From Alistipes sp. (GTDB taxonomy: Bacteria; Bacteroidota; Bacteroidia; Bacteroidales; Rikenellaceae), in assembly GCA_045634125.1 (NCBI GenBank), contig JAZQZQ010000025.1, positions 49,941 to 113,940 of the forward strand: a stretch of DNA of 64,000 bases, written 5' to 3'. Of this stretch, positions 8,538-15,301 are shown piece by piece. The translations under genes and the position numbers were made by a program. Numbering within the stretch: the stretch's first letter is position 1; every line of letters begins with the position of its first letter. The notes beneath the pieces were generated by a model. It was not told the DNA's origin. It was given only the letters and a program-made list of their open reading frames with translations, and did not search any database.

Positions 8538-9674
8538 TTACTTTAGTGCAGCCTTTAGACCCTGCAAAGCATCAATCTTCCATGTGATACCGAAGGTGAA
8601 GAATGAACCCTTATCGAGGGCGGTACCATTAGGGTCGTCATTTTTACCAGTGTTGTAAACATAGGCAGCGTGTAGGCGTACATCGCGGTTGCCGAGGTGC
8701 CCCATAGGGTAGTACTCGATACCGCCACCGATGCGAGTAAGGTCGGTATTAGGGTATACAAAGAGTGGCTGAGCATCAGCGCCAGCCTTGTCGTAGGTAA
8801 CCTTAGCAAATAGGTTTACGCGCTGTGCAACCAACTGTGAGAACTCCGCCATAATAGAGAAGTTCTTAAGCATAAACTCCTTAGCTGTTGTTCCACGGTT
8901 CATAAAGTCGAGTTCAAGAGTGGTGTTGCCCAACTTGAACTGGTTACCCAAAACAATGTATGCATCAAACTTCCCCTTCTGGTACTCCACGAAGTTTATT
9001 GAGTGGATTGCCTTGTAGCAGCCGTGTGAACCAAAATAGTAGAGGTTGTAGGCGTATAGGTCGCCAAGCTTTGTGATGATCTCTGGTGTGCAATCGTCAC
9101 AGCAATACTCTTTGTCTGTAGCTAACTCTGAGTGATAGTTAAGCGCCATTTTGTCGTATGGGCTTTGGCAAATCTGGAATGTGAATGAGTCGTTGCTCTT
9201 ATTTGTAGTATATGTCGCTGAAGCACCAAGCTGGAAGCAGTTTACATTGTTCCAATACTCCGAGCAGTAGTAGATCTCGATAGGGGCGCGGTCATACTCC
9301 CAACCACCAATCCAAACAACCTGCTTGCCTGCTGAGAACGACCAGTTGTCGTTAGCCTTATATGTAAGGTGCAACCAATCCGTATTGTTTACGAATGTGC
9401 CATCTACATTAGGACGGCTGAAACGCTGACGCCATGAGTAGCTGAACTTTGGTGCAATCTGACCATCCATTCGGAGGTTGAAGTAGCGCGCCTTAAAGCC
9501 TGTTGCGCCATAGATCTTATCGCCATTGAGAGCCTCGTTAAGATAGTCGAAACGTACCTCTACACCAAGGCGGAAGATCTCATTGCTCTTCTCGTAGCCC
9601 TGCTGTGCTACTGCCGATGTAAGGCTTAATACTGCTATGGCAATGCAGAGAATTTTGGTAAATGTATTCTTCAT
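8538..9674 (-). CDS. Outer-membrane porin (Bacteroidetes OprO/P-like)
   Basis: Signal peptide MKNTFTKILC..., beta-strand pattern, AGKQ...GGWEYD motif. The TATCTTTG promoter at 9730-9723 lies inside the longer track ORF, which supports ATG 9674. Confidence 0.7.
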   Translation of the reverse strand: MKNTFTKILCIAIAVLSLTSAVAQQGYEKSNEIFRLGVEVRFDYLNEALNGDKIYGATGFKARYFNLRMDGQIAPKFSYSWRQRFSRPNVDGTFVNNTDWLHLTYKANDNWSFSAGKQVVWIGGWEYDRAPIEIYYCSEYWNNVNCFQLGASATYTTNKSNDSFTFQICQSPYDKMALNYHSELATDKEYCCDDCTPEIITKLGDLYAYNLYYFGSHGCYKAIHSINFVEYQKGKFDAYIVLGNQFKLGNTTLELDFMNRGTTAKEFMLKNFSIMAEFSQLVAQRVNLFAKVTYDKAGADAQPLFVYPNTDLTRIGGGIEYYPMGHLGNRDVRLHAAYVYNTGKNDDPNGTALDKGSFFTFGITWKIDALQGLKAALK

Positions 9675-9722
9675 ATTTTGTAAGTTTAGATTTTGCAAAC
9701 GCCTAATACCTCTAATTACGGG

Positions 9723-9730
9723 CAAAGATA
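9723..9730 (-). promoter_or_regulatory. Bacteroidetes sigma-A -7 element
   Basis: TATCTTTG on the minus strand upstream of the porin. Confidence 0.55.
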
Positions 9731-9760
9731 TATAAAATATCTTAAGTATGCACATAAAAA

Positions 9761-9792
9761 TAGGGTTGCCCGCAATTTTTTGGACAACCCTA
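9761..9792 (-). terminator. Hairpin after the HMA gene (GGCTGTC-like family)
   Basis: TAGGGTTGCC...GGACAACCCTA. Confidence 0.55.
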
Positions 9793-9815
9793 CTCATTAT
9801 AAGAGTATCTACTCA

Positions 9816-10130
9816 CTATTTCTGCTCCTCGTTTACCTTAGCCTCCGCCTTAATCTTAATCTTTGCGAAAGCCTTAACGAGGGTCTCGTTGTTAGTCTTT
9901 GCTGGGTCGTAGGTTACAGTTACGGTCTTAGTAGGAACGTCAACCTGCACATCCTTAACACCCTTCTCATAAGGGATTGTGTTTGTAACCTTCTTAGCAC
10001 AGCCTGCGCAGTCGATATCTGTTACAAACTCAACGACAACACTCTTCTTATCGCCCTTCTTAGGCTCCTGAGCATTTGTAATGCCAATACCAAATAGTGC
10101 TACAAGGCACATCAAAATTATCTTCTTCAT
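9816..10130 (-). CDS. Secreted heavy-metal-associated (HMA) domain protein
   Basis: Signal peptide; CxxC motif DCAGC; HMA pattern GVKDVQVD...VTVTYDP. Confidence 0.88.
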   Translation of the reverse strand: MKKIILMCLVALFGIGITNAQEPKKGDKKSVVVEFVTDIDCAGCAKKVTNTIPYEKGVKDVQVDVPTKTVTVTYDPAKTNNETLVKAFAKIKIKAEAKVNEEQK

Positions 10131-10170: not shown

Positions 10171-12525
10171 TTAGTATATGTTCAATCGAAGACCGATATA
10201 GAACTTACGTCCCATAAGTGGTCCCCATACCATTGATGAGTTAAAGCCCGGTGCGTATGGCTTATCGCCACCTACGATAGGCTTGTTGCCACCGCTTACA
10301 CCTTGTAGATAGTTAGCAATATTTTCGCAACCAGCGTATAGAGTGAGGTTGCTCATCTTGTAGCTTACCTGAGCGAAGTACATCGGATATACAGGTGAGA
10401 GCGTAGGGTTGTTCACCGCGGCATCCATATCGCCCATAAGCTCTGGGAGACGTACTGGTCCATTCACCTGTGCTGTAACGTCGAATACCCAGCGCTGCAC
10501 AGCATACTGAATATTGATAAGACCCTTGTAGCGCGATGTTAGTGGTCGCTCCACCAGAATCTGCTTACCATCATGCTCTAAGGTCATCACAGCGTTGGTG
10601 TAGCGGAATGTTGCAAAGAGGTCGAAGCCACGGAATGGTGTCCAGTTGAAGTCTACTTGATAGTTGTCGGTGTATGACTTGCCATCGGTGTTGTAGATAT
10701 GTGTGGTATTGTCGCCACGCTCCTGATCAAAGACCATGGTGTTGAAGAACTGCGTGCGGAAGTAGTCAACACTGATTGTTGCCTGATCGTCGCCAGCCAA
10801 ACGGAAGGTCTGCGCAAGGCTACCACCAAAGGTTGCAGCGCGCTCCATATCGTCGTTGAGGTTGTCGGTAACGATATTGCGTGACGATGTCATAATCCAG
10901 ATGTTGTCTGTAACGAGGTTCTGACGACGGTAGCCCATACCTGCCGATGCACGTAGTGTTGTGCGTGGAGTTATCGCCCAGCGGATATGTGAACGAGGTG
11001 TGATAAGAAACTCTGGCTTAGCATCATAGTAGTAGTTACCATTTACAATCGAGTAGTCGCCACGAATACCTACCACCCACGAGAACTTCTCTTCGTTGTT
11101 GTATGTATACTCGGCAAAGATACCCGGCTCGGCGAGTGTTGCCTTGCCCTTAGCCTGCCACATTGGCTGTGGTGTACCCGATGAGGCATCCTGCTGGAGG
11201 TAGTCGTTATCCATCATACGCGCATATACCGAGATACCCGCATTGAGCGACGAACGCTGTGTGAAGTAGTGTGCATATGTGGCGTTGAAGCGGAAGGTGT
11301 CCTCCATAACATCTACATTGTTAACACCGAAGTATGAGTCGGTGAGGTAGTTGTCGTAGTCGAATACCATAGCGATGTTGTTCTGCACAGCATCGTCTGG
11401 GTCGCCTGTGAAGGTTCGCTCGTAACCTACTGGAATACCGAGCTTAGCATAGGCATTGATATTACGATTGTGAATCTTCGAGCCGTAAGGAGTGGCGAGT
11501 GGGTTCTGCATCATCTGGTCGAACATATCCTCGCGGTAGTCCATCTGACCACCGATACGGTTCTCGTTCACCACCTTCCAACCCCAGCGGAGTTGTACGC
11601 CATCACTATTCTGCCACAACCACTTATTTGCGATGTTTATCTGATTTGCCTTTGGCATATCGGCAAAGCCGTCGCCGTTCATATCGTGGTGCGCCGTGTC
11701 GAGTGAGCCGTGTGCCATGATTACTGTTGAGAGGCTCTTATCTGGAGTCAATGGAATAGCCGACGAGATGTTAATCTCTGGGCGCATCTCGTTGTCGAAG
11801 TAGAGGTTTAGGAAGAAGCGCTCGTCGTCGGTAGGCTTGCGGTGCTCAAGGTTAATCTGACCAGTGATAGCCTCGTGACCTGCCGTTACCGATGCTACGC
11901 CCTTAGATACCTGGATAGAGTTAAGCCACATACCTGGGGTGTAGCTAAGACCGTATGTAGCACCTGCGCCCTGCATAATAGGGCGGTTCTCGTCGAGAAT
12001 CTGAGTGTAAGTACCCGCAAGACCAAGCATCTTAATCTGGCGAGCACCAGAGATCGCGTCGCTATAACCTACGGTTACCGAAGCAGAGTTCTCGAATGAC
12101 TCGGCAAGCGAACAGCACGCCATCTTACATAATCCTGCAAACGAAATCTGCTCCTGACGTGTGATACCAGTAGTCTTTGCGTAGTTACCACGCTGCTGAC
12201 CCTCTACAATGACCTCGTCAATATCTACGGCAGATGGGGTCAACTCAATATCGAGGGTAGCGACACCCTTCTCCTCGACCTCAATCTCCACCAAATCGTA
12301 GCCCAAGTAGTCCACTACAAGAGTGTTGAAGTCGTGAACACGCTTAATCGAGTAGCTACCATCGGCTGTTGATGTAGCACCTGCTGTAGTGTTCTTCCAA
12401 AAAAGTGTTGCACCTACAAGTGGCTGACCGTTGTTTACGTCGGTTACCTTACCTGTAAGGGTACGCTGTGCCATTGCCACGATAGGCAAGCATAAAGCAA
12501 TAAAAAGTATAATTGATTTTTTCAT
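10171..12525 (-). CDS. TonB-dependent receptor, likely for a metal ion
   Basis: Signal peptide, CarboxypepD_reg-like N-domain, plug with LCKMACCSLAESF, IQVSKG motif, C-terminal aromatic strand FYIGLRLNIY. Confidence 0.9.
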   Translation of the reverse strand: MKKSIILFIALCLPIVAMAQRTLTGKVTDVNNGQPLVGATLFWKNTTAGATSTADGSYSIKRVHDFNTLVVDYLGYDLVEIEVEEKGVATLDIELTPSAVDIDEVIVEGQQRGNYAKTTGITRQEQISFAGLCKMACCSLAESFENSASVTVGYSDAISGARQIKMLGLAGTYTQILDENRPIMQGAGATYGLSYTPGMWLNSIQVSKGVASVTAGHEAITGQINLEHRKPTDDERFFLNLYFDNEMRPEINISSAIPLTPDKSLSTVIMAHGSLDTAHHDMNGDGFADMPKANQINIANKWLWQNSDGVQLRWGWKVVNENRIGGQMDYREDMFDQMMQNPLATPYGSKIHNRNINAYAKLGIPVGYERTFTGDPDDAVQNNIAMVFDYDNYLTDSYFGVNNVDVMEDTFRFNATYAHYFTQRSSLNAGISVYARMMDNDYLQQDASSGTPQPMWQAKGKATLAEPGIFAEYTYNNEEKFSWVVGIRGDYSIVNGNYYYDAKPEFLITPRSHIRWAITPRTTLRASAGMGYRRQNLVTDNIWIMTSSRNIVTDNLNDDMERAATFGGSLAQTFRLAGDDQATISVDYFRTQFFNTMVFDQERGDNTTHIYNTDGKSYTDNYQVDFNWTPFRGFDLFATFRYTNAVMTLEHDGKQILVERPLTSRYKGLINIQYAVQRWVFDVTAQVNGPVRLPELMGDMDAAVNNPTLSPVYPMYFAQVSYKMSNLTLYAGCENIANYLQGVSGGNKPIVGGDKPYAPGFNSSMVWGPLMGRKFYIGLRLNIY

Positions 12526-12598
12526 TTTGGCTTAGGTATTATGTTGATATAGTATTATTTATGGGTGTAAAGCCCAGCCTCAGCCAATGCCAAGGATA

Positions 12599-13003
12599 TT
12601 AAGCCAATGCGGGTGGGGCACGAAGTCCAAAACTACGACTATAGGAGTCGGAGGGTGTACCAATATCGAGTAGTTCTAATCTCTCATACTGCGCATAGCT
12701 ATATAGAGATAGTTCCTCGTCAACAGAGGTTAGAACTATAGGGGCAACGAGCAACGATAGAGCTGCTGCGGTGCGTGAGTCAGTACGAGACTCGATAAAA
12801 TCGGTGTGGTTATCGCCGAGAATAGGGTGATGATGGTCGCAACAATCTTTGGTAACGCCAATGTGCGAACAACACTCCGATTTACAACTGTGATGATGGT
12901 GGTGATGATGATCGCATGTGAGCAGCGACAACGACGAAAGAAGTGTGGCTACGGTATATACCGCTACCATCAAAAAGGCATATATCTTTCTTCGTTGTGC
13001 CAT
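12599..13003 (-). CDS. His/Cys-rich leader protein ending in RAPP (DUF2946/CruR-like)
   Basis: N-terminal hydrophobic segment, CDHHHHHHHSC, CC pairs, C-terminal GLRAPPALA; ends 73 nt upstream of the TBDR. Confidence 0.72.
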   Translation of the reverse strand: MAQRRKIYAFLMVAVYTVATLLSSLSLLTCDHHHHHHHSCKSECCSHIGVTKDCCDHHHPILGDNHTDFIESRTDSRTAAALSLLVAPIVLTSVDEELSLYSYAQYERLELLDIGTPSDSYSRSFGLRAPPALA

Positions 13004-13018: not shown

Positions 13019-13285
13019 CTACTCTGCAATGTTGCACTCGCGGAGCTTCTCTATCCAGCGCTCTGCATCTGTAGTGGCAACGCTCATATCAATACTGTAA
13101 CGCTCTATAATTAGCTTTGCAACCGCCTCGGTATCAAACTCTTTGCCCTGTAACTCATTCCAGAGATACAACGCGCTCTCATTGAGAGATATAATCTTTG
13201 TAAGGTCGCTACCGTGCTTGCCCTGCATAATAATTACATGCTCGCCAGCCATCTCGCGTACCTTGTACTGCTCCTTAATCTTCAT
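13019..13285 (-). CDS. PqqD family (RRE-like) protein
   Basis: 88 aa; ISLNESALYLWNEL and YSID...A..D...W pattern of Bacteroidetes PqqD proteins. Confidence 0.85.
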   Translation of the reverse strand: MKIKEQYKVREMAGEHVIIMQGKHGSDLTKIISLNESALYLWNELQGKEFDTEAVAKLIIERYSIDMSVATTDAERWIEKLRECNIAE

Positions 13286-13369: not shown

Positions 13370-15301
13370 ATGAATATAAACAAGGCAGAGCAAACAAATA
13401 TATCGATTGAGACCATCCTTGAAAAGTGGTGGGGATATAAGGAGTTTAGACCTATGCAGCGCGAGATTATTGAATCGGTGTTGCAGGGGCGTGATACCCT
13501 TGCCCTTATGCCTACGGGTGGCGGTAAGTCGATAACATATCAAGTGCCAGCCTTGGCAATGGATGGTCTTTGCATTGTTGTAACGCCACTTATTGCCTTA
13601 ATGAAGGATCAGGTCGACCAACTTCAACGACGAGGAATATCTGCTGTGGCAGTGCATTCGGGTCTCGACCCACGACGTATCGAGATAGCCTTGGATAATT
13701 GTACCTATGGCGATGTCAAGATGCTCTATATCGCCCCAGAGCGCTTGGAGACCGAAGCCTTTAAGGTGCGCCTTAGACAAATGAATATCAGTCTAATAGC
13801 AGTTGATGAGGCGCACTGTATCTCGCAGTGGGGCTACGACTTTCGCCCCTCGTATCTCAATATTGCAAAGGTGCGTGAGTTTGCACTCGATGCTCCGATA
13901 TTGGCACTTACAGCCTCGGCAACGGAGGAGGTGGCGAGGGATATTATGCGCCATCTACACTTTGGCAGTGAGAATATCTTGCGTTCGAGTTTTGCGCGCC
14001 CAAATTTGTCCTATGTGGTGCGCGATAGTGGCGATAAGTATGAGAACCTGCTACGCGTAATAAACAATGTCCCTGGCTCGGGTATTGTCTATATGCGTAC
14101 TCGTGAGGGTGCGGAGCAACTTGCGGAGCAACTACGCAAGGATGGCGTGAATGCCAACTACTACCATGCGGGACTCCCATCGATGGAGCGCTCTCTGCGT
14201 CAGGATGAGTGGCGCGATGGCAAGACTCGCGTTATTGTTGCTACGAATGCCTTTGGTATGGGCATCGATAAGGCGGATGTTAGGTTTGTTATCCACTTTG
14301 CGATGTGCGATTCGTTGGAGGCTTACTATCAGGAGGCGGGTCGTGCCGGTCGTGATGGTAGGCGTAGTTATGCTGTGCTTCTTGCCGAGCAGAGAGATGG
14401 CGAGAGTATCGCAAAATTATTTAAGACAGAGTTTCCGCCTATCACCGAAATTAAGCGTGTCTACGAGTTGATATGCAACTACTTACAAGTGGCTGTAGGC
14501 GATGGCTTTGGGGCATCGTTCGCCTTCAATATATATGACTTTTGCCATACGGTAAAGCTCTCCTCGATAATGGTTACGAATGCTCTAAAAATCTTGGAGC
14601 AGAATAGATTGATGACCCTTATTGATGAGCAGGATAATCCTGCGAAATTGATGTTTACTTGTTCGCGCGACGCACTCTATAAGCTTAATGCCGAGGGCAA
14701 TGATATGGATGCGATGTTGTTGGCGATACTGCGCCTATATAATGGTGTTTTTACCAGTTTCCGTAATATCGACGAGTTGCAAATTGCCTCCTTCGCGAAG
14801 CTCTCACCAGAGCGTGTGCATGAGTTATTGAAGATACTGTGGCGTATGCATGTCATACGCTATATCCCTGCTGCGCGTACACCGATGATATATTTCAACT
14901 CGGAGCGACTGCCTCAGAAGGATGTCTATATTGCTCCCGAGACCTACCGTTATCGTTATGACCGAGCTGTGGAGCGATTCAATAGTATGTTGCGCTATAC
15001 GACTACGACTGATGAGTGTCGTAGTAAAATTATAGAGGAGTACTTTGGCGAGCCTAATGCTCGGGATTGTGGGATATGCGATATATGCATTAGTAAACGA
15101 AAAAAAACAGCCTTGTCATATGTGCCAGAGAATATTGATACACACATACTTAGTATGCTCGCCGATGGCGAGGTTTCGATAAAGGATATTGTCGCTGCTA
15201 TTGGTGGTCGTAGTGAACTTATTGCCGAGCGTATAGATTATTTATTGAACGAGAAGAAAATTTCTGTTTCGATAAGTGGAAAAGTAAAAATAAATAAGTA
15301 A
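13370..15301 (+). CDS. recQ: RecQ-family ATP-dependent DNA helicase
   Basis: MPTGGGKS, AVDEAHCISQWGYDFRP, ATNAFGMGIDK, YYQEAGRAGRDG and the Zn-binding CR...CGICDIC; no HRDC domain. Confidence 0.93.
   Translation: MNINKAEQTNISIETILEKWWGYKEFRPMQREIIESVLQGRDTLALMPTGGGKSITYQVPALAMDGLCIVVTPLIALMKDQVDQLQRRGISAVAVHSGLDPRRIEIALDNCTYGDVKMLYIAPERLETEAFKVRLRQMNISLIAVDEAHCISQWGYDFRPSYLNIAKVREFALDAPILALTASATEEVARDIMRHLHFGSENILRSSFARPNLSYVVRDSGDKYENLLRVINNVPGSGIVYMRTREGAEQLAEQLRKDGVNANYYHAGLPSMERSLRQDEWRDGKTRVIVATNAFGMGIDKADVRFVIHFAMCDSLEAYYQEAGRAGRDGRRSYAVLLAEQRDGESIAKLFKTEFPPITEIKRVYELICNYLQVAVGDGFGASFAFNIYDFCHTVKLSSIMVTNALKILEQNRLMTLIDEQDNPAKLMFTCSRDALYKLNAEGNDMDAMLLAILRLYNGVFTSFRNIDELQIASFAKLSPERVHELLKILWRMHVIRYIPAARTPMIYFNSERLPQKDVYIAPETYRYRYDRAVERFNSMLRYTTTTDECRSKIIEEYFGEPNARDCGICDICISKRKKTALSYVPENIDTHILSMLADGEVSIKDIVAAIGGRSELIAERIDYLLNEKKISVSISGKVKINK

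Follow-up and report, generated by a model that had tools for sequence, protein, structure and literature searches.

A candidate RAPP-type ribosome-arrest leader, with a putative metal-sensing domain, upstream of a TonB-dependent receptor and HMA-protein operon in Alistipes

One of the closest described systems, CruR (Bp2923) of Bordetella pertussis, is a small protein of the DUF2946 family (PF11162) that carries the motif RAPP three residues before its stop codon (Roy et al. 2022, PMC9426467). Its translational arrest has been shown by PURE translation and toeprinting (PMC12992588), and the geometry of the RAP/P stall comes from cryo-EM (PMC10951233). CutF of Rhodobacter capsulatus, with the copper motif CxxxC, controls the multicopper oxidase CutO: its stalling opens a stem-loop masking the next gene's ribosome-binding site (Ozturk et al. 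2023, PMC9973294). The same paper collected 5,334 CutF-like proteins, a large share of them in Bacteroidota, with RND efflux and TonB-like genes among their neighbours. In the catalogue of RAPP/RGPP upstream open reading frames (uORFs) by Chiba and co-workers (EMBO J 2025, PMC12992588), the TonB-dependent receptor is the commonest downstream gene (5450 RAPP uORFs), and the entries listed include Bacteroidales-like ones such as WP_118465261 and WP_118465805. Here we analyse a stretch of 64,000 nucleotides from Alistipes sp. (contig JAZQZQ010000025.1; the whole stretch is called the window below), focusing on one open reading frame (ORF) of its minus strand, MAQRRKIYAFLMVAVYTVATLLSSLSLLTCDHHHHHHHSCKSECCSHIGVTKDCCDHHHPILGDNHTDFIESRTDSRTAAALSLLVAPIVLTSVDEELSLYSYAQYERLELLDIGTPSDSYSRSFGLRAPPALA, which lies between a gene for a PqqD-like protein and a gene for a TonB-dependent receptor. 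We judge it likely, though well short of certain, that this ORF is a cis-acting RAPP-type ribosome-arrest leader of the operon of the receptor and a secreted HMA-domain protein, and by analogy with CruR and CutF it probably acts as a metal-sensing translational switch of their kind. The support is computed: the motif is conserved as a peptide sequence, the rest of the proteome avoids RAPP, both the operon and the spacing between Cys/His motif and RAPP are conserved, and the stall site shows covarying complementarity to the start of the next gene.

The likeness to CruR extends over the whole architecture. Each is a small ORF that has an N-terminal segment for export or anchoring and a region of metal ligands with Cys among them; each carries RAPP exactly three residues before the stop with a TonB-dependent receptor operon directly downstream, and in both the spacing from ligand motif to RAPP is conserved. 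On the other hand, no homology is detectable beyond RAPP (3% in hhalign, no match with hidden Markov models, HMMs), and the leader presents C-D-H7 and CC pairs, at 73-75 residues from RAPP, where CruR has CxxC at 45. The leader also differs in belonging to Bacteroidota, in having a PqqD-like companion, and in a predicted output that consists in unmasking a start and not in relief from Rho. With CutF it shares what appears from the sequence to be an mRNA structure shielding the next start (12607-12600 with 12534-12527), which a stalled ribosome would open. The leader also has the properties that mark CutF-like proteins, namely fewer than 150 residues (134), PP among the last 15 (residues 130-131), an anchor at the N-terminus and a same-strand gene within 1000 nt (73 nt away), the anchor being called from hydropathy (Kyte-Doolittle, 19-residue window; KD19) and an AlphaFold2 (AF2) helix rather than by a dedicated signal-peptide predictor. 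The two differ in their targets, a multicopper oxidase for CutF and a receptor here, and in the CxxxC motif of CutF. The preliminary description of this locus had placed CutF in Caulobacter and made it the regulator of a copper receptor; both statements are corrected by the account given above (PMC9973294). A C-terminal RAPP combined with a localisation signal is likewise the pattern of the uORF catalogue; the motifs of the Alistipes leader family were not found in the part of its list that was searched (PMC12992588), and the part of the CutF-like collection available to us does not name the family (PMC9973294). ApdA, ApdP and SecM differ in that they monitor Sec components, not metals. The leader's G-L-R-A-P-P nevertheless resembles the SecM motif G-I-R-A-G-P.

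Homologs of the leader came from a search of 5.8 billion proteins (117 homologs, the few named ones being from Alistipes sp.), from an exhaustive HMMER search of cluster representatives (20 matches) and from a profile search (155 proteins). All 144 small homologs end in LRAPP and a short tail, which has three residues in 143 of them and four in one. The preliminary description had proposed conservation of RAPP in orthologs ahead of TonB-dependent receptors as a check, and the motif proved invariant there and also in distant relatives, with the same receptor type downstream. The 35 distinct nucleotide versions of LRAPP use five Leu, four Arg and four Ala codons and four codons at each of the two Pro positions; with all these synonymous codons in use, selection must act on the peptide and not on the RNA. 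Within the genus, 165 of 251 genomes have a match to the leader profile (65 of the 102 of high quality); a sample of 151 genomes taken from across the bacterial family gave 9. Remoter relatives in the same bacterial family retain only the N-terminal hydrophobic segment, the richness in His and Cys, and (G/S/A)LRAPP followed by 2-4 residues.

Upstream of the motif, the alignments single out the anchor and the Cys/His domain. The anchor positions Y16, S23 and S26 are invariant in the family alignment, as are C30, H34, C54, C55, H57, H59, P60, L62-N65, T67, R73 and R77; down to about 32% identity, Y16, S23, C30, H57 and the block L-R-A-P-P stay fully invariant. The His7 run follows C30 as C30-D-H7, the Cys-Cys pairs are residues 44-45 and 54-55, and in 133 of 142 homologs the CC(D/N)H.H motif stands at a distance of 73-75 residues from RAPP. 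All the elements listed in the preliminary description (134 residues, a transmembrane or signal segment, His7, two Cys-Cys pairs and the C-terminus GLRAPPALA) were confirmed on the sequence, and its positions for the RAPP codons and the 73-nt gap are exact. Its reading of the ORF as an arrest leader is supported at the level of sequence, where each prediction open to computation held. A lipoprotein reading of C30 was ruled out: most members have T, I, V, L or F at position -1, which does not make a lipobox.

Within this genome RAPP is avoided elsewhere in the proteome. Over stop-to-stop frames of at least 150 residues in the 1.87-Mb genome, RAPP, RGPP and RAGP each occur 0 times against 3.0, 2.5 and 5.7 expected, while RSPP and PPAR are found at about their expected counts. 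The absence of RAPP from the longer frames agrees with the published under-representation in Bacteroidota, with a frequency bias of 0.14 (supplement of PMC12992588). Of the genome's small ORFs, just two credible ones end in LRAPP: the leader described here and a second one that lies outside the window, on contig C12 (16589-16933, minus strand). The latter, of about 112 residues with a GTG start, has His as its only ligand type and reads ...FIHSHNIDGRSIVHSHPF...TLRAPPSLV; it precedes a second TonB-dependent receptor (781 residues) by 136 nt (C12:16452-16933, minus strand), and its PP-S-L codons pair in a 14-bp duplex (-16.0 kcal/mol) that covers the AUG of that receptor. Among the entries listed in the uORF catalogue, it resembles WP_118465805 (PMC12992588).

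The preliminary description had further compared the ORF with DUF2946-type uORFs and suggested searching it with the DUF2946 and DUF6769 models. Of this comparison, the match in architecture with CruR (PMC9426467) stands, while membership of DUF2946 does not. With Pfam cut-offs of 23.7 bits for DUF2946 (PF11162) and 27 bits for DUF6769 (PF20558), neither the leader nor a set of 26 members of its family matched DUF2946 at E<=1, and a scan of the complete genome was likewise empty; the positive control worked, PF11162 being matched by all 14 catalogued DUF2946 leaders tried (supplement of PMC12992588). In hhalign the leader family and DUF2946 align over just 8 columns (xLRAPPxx) at 3.4% probability, and the leader lacks a CxxC at about 45 residues before RAPP, having its invariant CC(D/N)H.H instead. 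Membership of DUF2946 is thus ruled out by both HMM and hhalign. The DUF6769 HMM also matched 0 of the 26 family members at E<=1, but a C-terminal module is shared: hhalign places the leader family and DUF6769 together at 96% probability (E 1.5e-9), with confidence only over the last 26 columns, the N-terminal parts being collinear and not significantly similar. Two weak relatives in the same bacterial family (L009 and L011) match DUF6769 at 35-37 bits. That the last 26 residues are shared while the rest diverges is what is expected for the part inside the ribosome tunnel, about 26 residues being close to the length of peptide in the exit tunnel. By its sequence, the leader family is a separate one, unrecognised by Pfam, which has an arrest-type C-terminal module in common with leaders of metal-efflux operons.

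DUF6769 itself passes its cut-off in 45 of the 301 Bacteroidales genomes scanned, and also in B. thetaiotaomicron. Among 30 loci (L019-L048), 27 have a central small ORF with an R(A/G)PP-type end, nearly always (G/S/A)LRAPPxx, and a layout of transmembrane segment, P-HHHH, Cys-rich middle and LRAPP-type end. The genes that follow encode a His-rich CusB-type adaptor (HlyD_D23), an RND pump (ACR_tran) and an OEP, as for instance in L014:4782-10808. By sequence and context, these proteins look like arrest leaders of CusCBA-like metal-efflux operons; our literature search found no paper that describes DUF6769 in this way. The leader family resembles them in the collinear order of a transmembrane segment, a His run right after it, a Cys-rich middle and (G/S/A)LRAPP plus 2-4 residues, as well as in the pairing of the leader's 3' end with the downstream start region. 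It differs in having C-(D/E)-HHHH in place of P-HHHH, in the CCDHHHPILGDNHTD block that DUF6769 lacks, and in its position ahead of a receptor-HMA pair with a PqqD-like neighbour, and not of a CusB-like adaptor/RND/OEP operon. As a separate observation, in L025 and L047 the same-strand gene just upstream of DUF6769 starts M..D..LE.....GIR.T..R..IY..I, which by eye looks like a Fur-family regulator.

The second line of evidence is RNA pairing between the end of the leader and the start of the receptor. The minimum-free-energy structure from RNAfold pairs UUGGCUUA with UAAGCCAA over 8 bp, a duplex of -10.7 kcal/mol (z -2.8 and p 0.015 against dinucleotide shuffles). Related loci repeat this pairing with changed sequences (Table 1). 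Over the leader family the duplexes have a mean z of -1.3, with 9 of 28 loci below -2, compared with -0.6 to +0.3 in control windows and -0.65 in a control placed after the stop; cognate pairs reach -10.4 kcal/mol against -9.2 for non-cognate ones (permutation p 0.002). The independent and decisive test was that of the DUF6769 loci, whose sequences are unrelated and whose genomes span many Bacteroidales families. Here z averages -1.9 to -2.3 and is below -2 at 10-13 of 22-23 loci, and the helices, of 8-15 bp, often lie over the AUG. Cognate duplexes average -9.5 against -5.8 kcal/mol for non-cognate ones, a difference that 0 of 20,000 permutations equalled (p<5e-5), and control windows further upstream in the leader, in the downstream coding region and right after the stop give z from -0.5 to +0.1. 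In their geometry, most 5' strands fall in the stretch from about +3 to +20 nt relative to the first Pro (P-site) codon, and most 3' strands between -30 and +2 relative to the AUG, a few being further upstream. A ribosome held at the motif would therefore occupy the 5' strand and free the start region. Judged from sequence, leaders of this kind seem to share the pairing of stall site and start region as a general design rule. Bacteroidales lack Shine-Dalgarno-led initiation, and the phylum Bacteroidota is not known to rely on Shine-Dalgarno pairing. A masked start that is opened by a stall would follow the logic of SecM and CutF (PMC9973294).

Mechanistically, the N-terminal anchor would bring the translating ribosome to the membrane, and the His/Cys-rich domain (residues 30-77) would pass through to the periplasmic face, having already emerged when the ribosome reaches Arg-Ala-Pro/Pro about 50 residues later; with the ribosome at residue 130, the whole domain should be outside the membrane. 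The ApdA/ApdP structures (PMC10951233) and the CruR toeprint (PMC12992588) predict that the stalled ribosome holds Pro130 (12616-12614) at its P site and Pro131 (12613-12611) at its A site. The paused ribosome would then cover the last codons of the leader, which are otherwise paired with the 8 nt just 5' of the receptor AUG, and for the duration of the stall the initiation region of the receptor would be single-stranded and translatable. Upon release, termination would occur three codons on, the helix would re-form and initiation would be blocked. Metal occupancy of the exported His/Cys domain would set the length of the stall, either by folding or by a pulling force, as the CruR model has it, or by slowing export, in line with the CutF model. 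In the first case metal binding would provide force or folding and release the stall, which fits an importer that is shut off when metal is plentiful; in the second, it would retard export and prolong the stall, which fits the DUF6769 efflux operons. We infer that Bacteroidota ribosomes would stall at the leader's RAPP and that the signal would be a metal, as well as which metal it might be and with which polarity the operon may respond.

Several observations weigh against this arrest-leader reading, and some of them speak for other explanations. On the RNA side, the helix in the window has just 8 bp and closes a 65-nt loop, and the fold of the whole region is no stabler than shuffles (z -0.68), so that the specific long-range duplex alone stands out. 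About a quarter of the family loci have no convincing helix (e.g. L065, L067 and L076), the permutation p-value of the family is inflated by the phylogenetic relatedness of its loci, and metatranscriptome coverage is too sparse to reveal attenuation. Along most of the leader C exceeds G (26-33% versus 17-21%), for which reason an additional CruR-like, Rho-dependent layer is possible. The same composition would also suit a leader that stalls but has a transcriptional output, a mechanism demonstrated for CruR (PMC9426467): the stalled ribosome would block the loading or access of Rho and let transcription run on into the receptor gene, its release would lead to intergenic termination, and the helix would be incidental or secondary. 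A terminator scan found no intrinsic terminator between leader and receptor, in keeping with such an output, and the one leader hairpin (12650-12636) is at chance level. We still regard a purely transcriptional output as unlikely, because the intergenic region is A/U-rich (G 6-13%, C 17-19%) and offers no C-rich bubble, and because a specific, covarying complementarity centred on the downstream AUG is not predicted by a Rho model. The two layers, Rho and helix, could coexist.

On the peptide side, 134 residues is long for a pure leader, the 48-residue His/Cys domain in its middle is strongly conserved, and AF2 (32-sequence alignment) yields no confident fold, with a mean predicted local distance difference test score (pLDDT) of 57.6 and the helix of residues 2-31 (pLDDT 80-90) as the sole confident element. 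Given this length and the conserved middle domain, the mature protein may have its own function. At the extreme, the product of the ORF would be a small, stable metal-binding protein of the inner membrane that cooperates with receptor and HMA protein, perhaps by accepting metal on the periplasmic face, with LRAPP serving the mature protein and no stall at all; the PqqD-like partner, which suggests a protein-peptide interaction, is compatible with this. We find it quite improbable, considering that the LRAPP-plus-3 tail is the only block common to the family and the otherwise unalignable DUF6769 and DUF2946 leaders, that RAPP is avoided elsewhere in the genome, that the last codons pair with the start of the next gene, and that the protein has no AF2 fold, CruR being likewise poorly structured and short-lived (PMC9426467). 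A dual role, as a switch and through a function of the mature protein, is possible. The last difficulty concerns polarity: the DUF6769 relatives head efflux operons and the leader family heads an import-type receptor, so the same module cannot share its metal polarity between them unless the sensor domains act oppositely.

The marginally hydrophobic segment in the second half of the leader (residues 79-95) raises a different possibility, as it ends 35 residues upstream of the P-site proline. From force profiles, 35 residues is a distance at which translocon engagement pulls on a nascent chain. The leader might then be a Sec/YidC-type monitoring substrate, in which the pull exerted by membrane insertion, and not a metal, ends the stall and which reports on the export or envelope state, all the more as RAPP leaders were first found before sec genes (PMC12992588). 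This is very unlikely, however: the downstream genes encode a receptor and an HMA protein and no Sec or YidC components, the invariant residues are Cys and His, and the related DUF6769 leaders head CusCBA-like metal-efflux operons.

Table 1. Coordinates of the features discussed (positions in the window) and leader-end/start pairings of related loci
Feature	Position	Strand	Details
Candidate operon promoter	13395..13402	-	TATATTTG; about 110 nt upstream of the PqqD-like ATG, overlapping the first codons of the divergent RecQ ORF as listed
PqqD-like gene	13019..13285	-	88 aa; peptide-binding RRE (RiPP recognition element) fold; Pfam PF05402, E 5e-13
Leader ORF	12599..13003	-	ATG start; 134 aa; no Pfam/NCBIfam family
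N-terminal transmembrane or signal-anchor segment	12917..12985	-	residues 7-29, preceded by RRK; KD19 peak 2.0
Putative metal-sensing domain	12773..12916	-	residues 30-77; C-D-H7, CxxxCC, CCDHHHPILGDNHTD...R...R
Marginally hydrophobic segment	12719..12769	-	residues 79-95; KD19 1.1-1.6; LSLLxAPxV pattern weakly conserved
C-terminal arrest module (putative)	12602..12679	-	last ~26 residues, including G-L-R-A-P-P-A-L-A; from hhalign against the DUF6769 alignment
RAPP codons	12611..12622	-	cgt gcc cca ccc; invariant in 144/144 homologs
Helix 5' strand	12600..12607	-	UUGGCUUA; Leu133, Ala134, stop; +9 to +16 nt from the P-site codon
Helix 3' strand	12527..12534	-	UAAGCCAA; -9 to -2 relative to the receptor AUG
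TonB-dependent receptor	10171..12525	-	784 aa; Pfam PF13715, PF07715, PF14905: CarboxypepD_reg-like, plug, barrel
Secreted HMA-domain protein	9816..10130	-	104 aa; Pfam PF00403, E 9e-14; motif D-I-D-C-A-G-C
Porin O/P-like gene	8538..9797	-	after the HMA gene here, unlike in L001-L003
L070 pairing			5' strand UUGGUCU; 3' strand AGACCAA
L062 pairing			5' strand GUAUUGG; 3' strand CCAAUAC
L013 pairing			5' strand GGCAUAAAAC; 3' strand GUUUUAUGUC
L010 pairing			5' strand UUACGG; 3' strand CCGUAA

Along the minus strand, the genes follow each other in the order PqqD-like, leader, receptor, HMA protein and porin O/P-like, with RecQ divergent upstream. Leader, receptor and HMA gene keep this order in all loci examined, on metagenomic contigs and in genomes. 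The leader's TAA stop (12601-12599) and the receptor's ATG (12525-12523) enclose the 73-nt gap, and in the 31 loci with a called start the receptor begins 50-150 nt downstream of the leader, with the same receptor type in every locus of the family. The porin O/P-like gene probably lies outside the conserved module, since it does not follow the HMA gene in L001-L003. Transcripts of the receptor and HMA genes are present in gut samples (metatranscriptome contigs from runs X25-X28, scattered), and one such contig joins the 3' end of the PqqD-like gene to the 5' end of the leader. As for the promoter, TATATTTG fits the Bacteroidetes -7 consensus, TAnnTTTG, and on this basis is a possible promoter of the operon.

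Both genes downstream of the leader carry motifs that may bear on metal specificity. The plug of the receptor (residues ~141-152) contains a Cys-rich stretch, FAGLCKMACC(S/N)LAESFENS, which is identical in distant orthologs and includes a conserved CKMACC; such a motif is unusual for an outer-membrane protein. Compared with the PDB, the receptor matched in its N-terminal domain only, and its substrate is therefore not inferable from a solved relative. The HMA gene is kept downstream of the receptor in L001-L003 and L016-L018, with an invariant IDCxxC in which Asp precedes the first Cys. This Asp-Cys-x-x-Cys is presumably closer to a ZntA-type site for divalent metals than to the M-T/S-C-x-x-C site for Cu(I), a lead only, and by this analogy hints at a divalent metal such as Zn as the ligand.

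The PqqD-like gene is a conserved companion of the leader. Its stop lies 15 nt before the leader's ATG, it stands directly upstream in 31 of 37 leader-family loci, and its homologs, 66-98% identical and named PqqD family protein [Alistipes sp.], are more conserved than the leader that they precede. No PqqD-like gene was seen within 450 nt upstream in the other 6 of the 37 loci, an absence that gene calls confirmed for L003 and L004, and none was found beside the DUF6769 loci. There is no maturase nearby. A PqqD fold so close to a Cys/His-rich peptide and an adjacent TonB-dependent receptor might suggest the precursor of a ribosomally made peptide natural product, recognised by the PqqD-like element and matured into a metal chelator that the receptor takes up. 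Methanobactin clusters, too, have a TonB-dependent receptor beside the peptide gene. Such a precursor is extremely improbable here: no maturase, protease or exporter occurs in any locus, the PqqD-like gene itself is missing from some of them, and the peptide has an N-terminal transmembrane anchor and an invariant arrest-type C-terminus. The precursor reading was ruled out on the missing maturase. Within the arrest-leader reading, a bolder proposal would make the PqqD-like protein a trans-acting partner that binds the leader peptide, as nascent chain or after release, and tunes the arrest time, and would have Bacteroidales use a portable module of about 26 residues ending in LRAPP, with its helix against the start region, for metal import and efflux operons alike, the sensor domains giving opposite polarity. 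We consider this two-part proposal unlikely.

Experimental demonstrations of nascent-chain switches that sense metals are confined to Proteobacteria (CruR and CutF), and we found no experimentally tested member from Bacteroidota in the literature searched. Gut Bacteroidales make up a major share of the gut microbiota and compete for Zn and Cu. In these organisms, the leader-receptor-HMA locus is a compact and well-conserved test case. The principle has already been published (CruR, PMC9426467; CutF, PMC9973294), so the gain is one of extension and annotation and not of a new mechanism: the class is already catalogued, Bacteroidota included, and the leader is a new, unannotated member of it. 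What the analysis adds is the PqqD-like companion, the arrest module common to this family and the DUF6769 efflux leaders, and statistics for stall-sensitive masking of the start in Bacteroidales. If the PqqD-like protein did act as a cofactor, no arrest peptide before this one would have had a peptide-binding cofactor of its own. For the uncharacterised Pfam family DUF6769, the comparison assigns a likely role.

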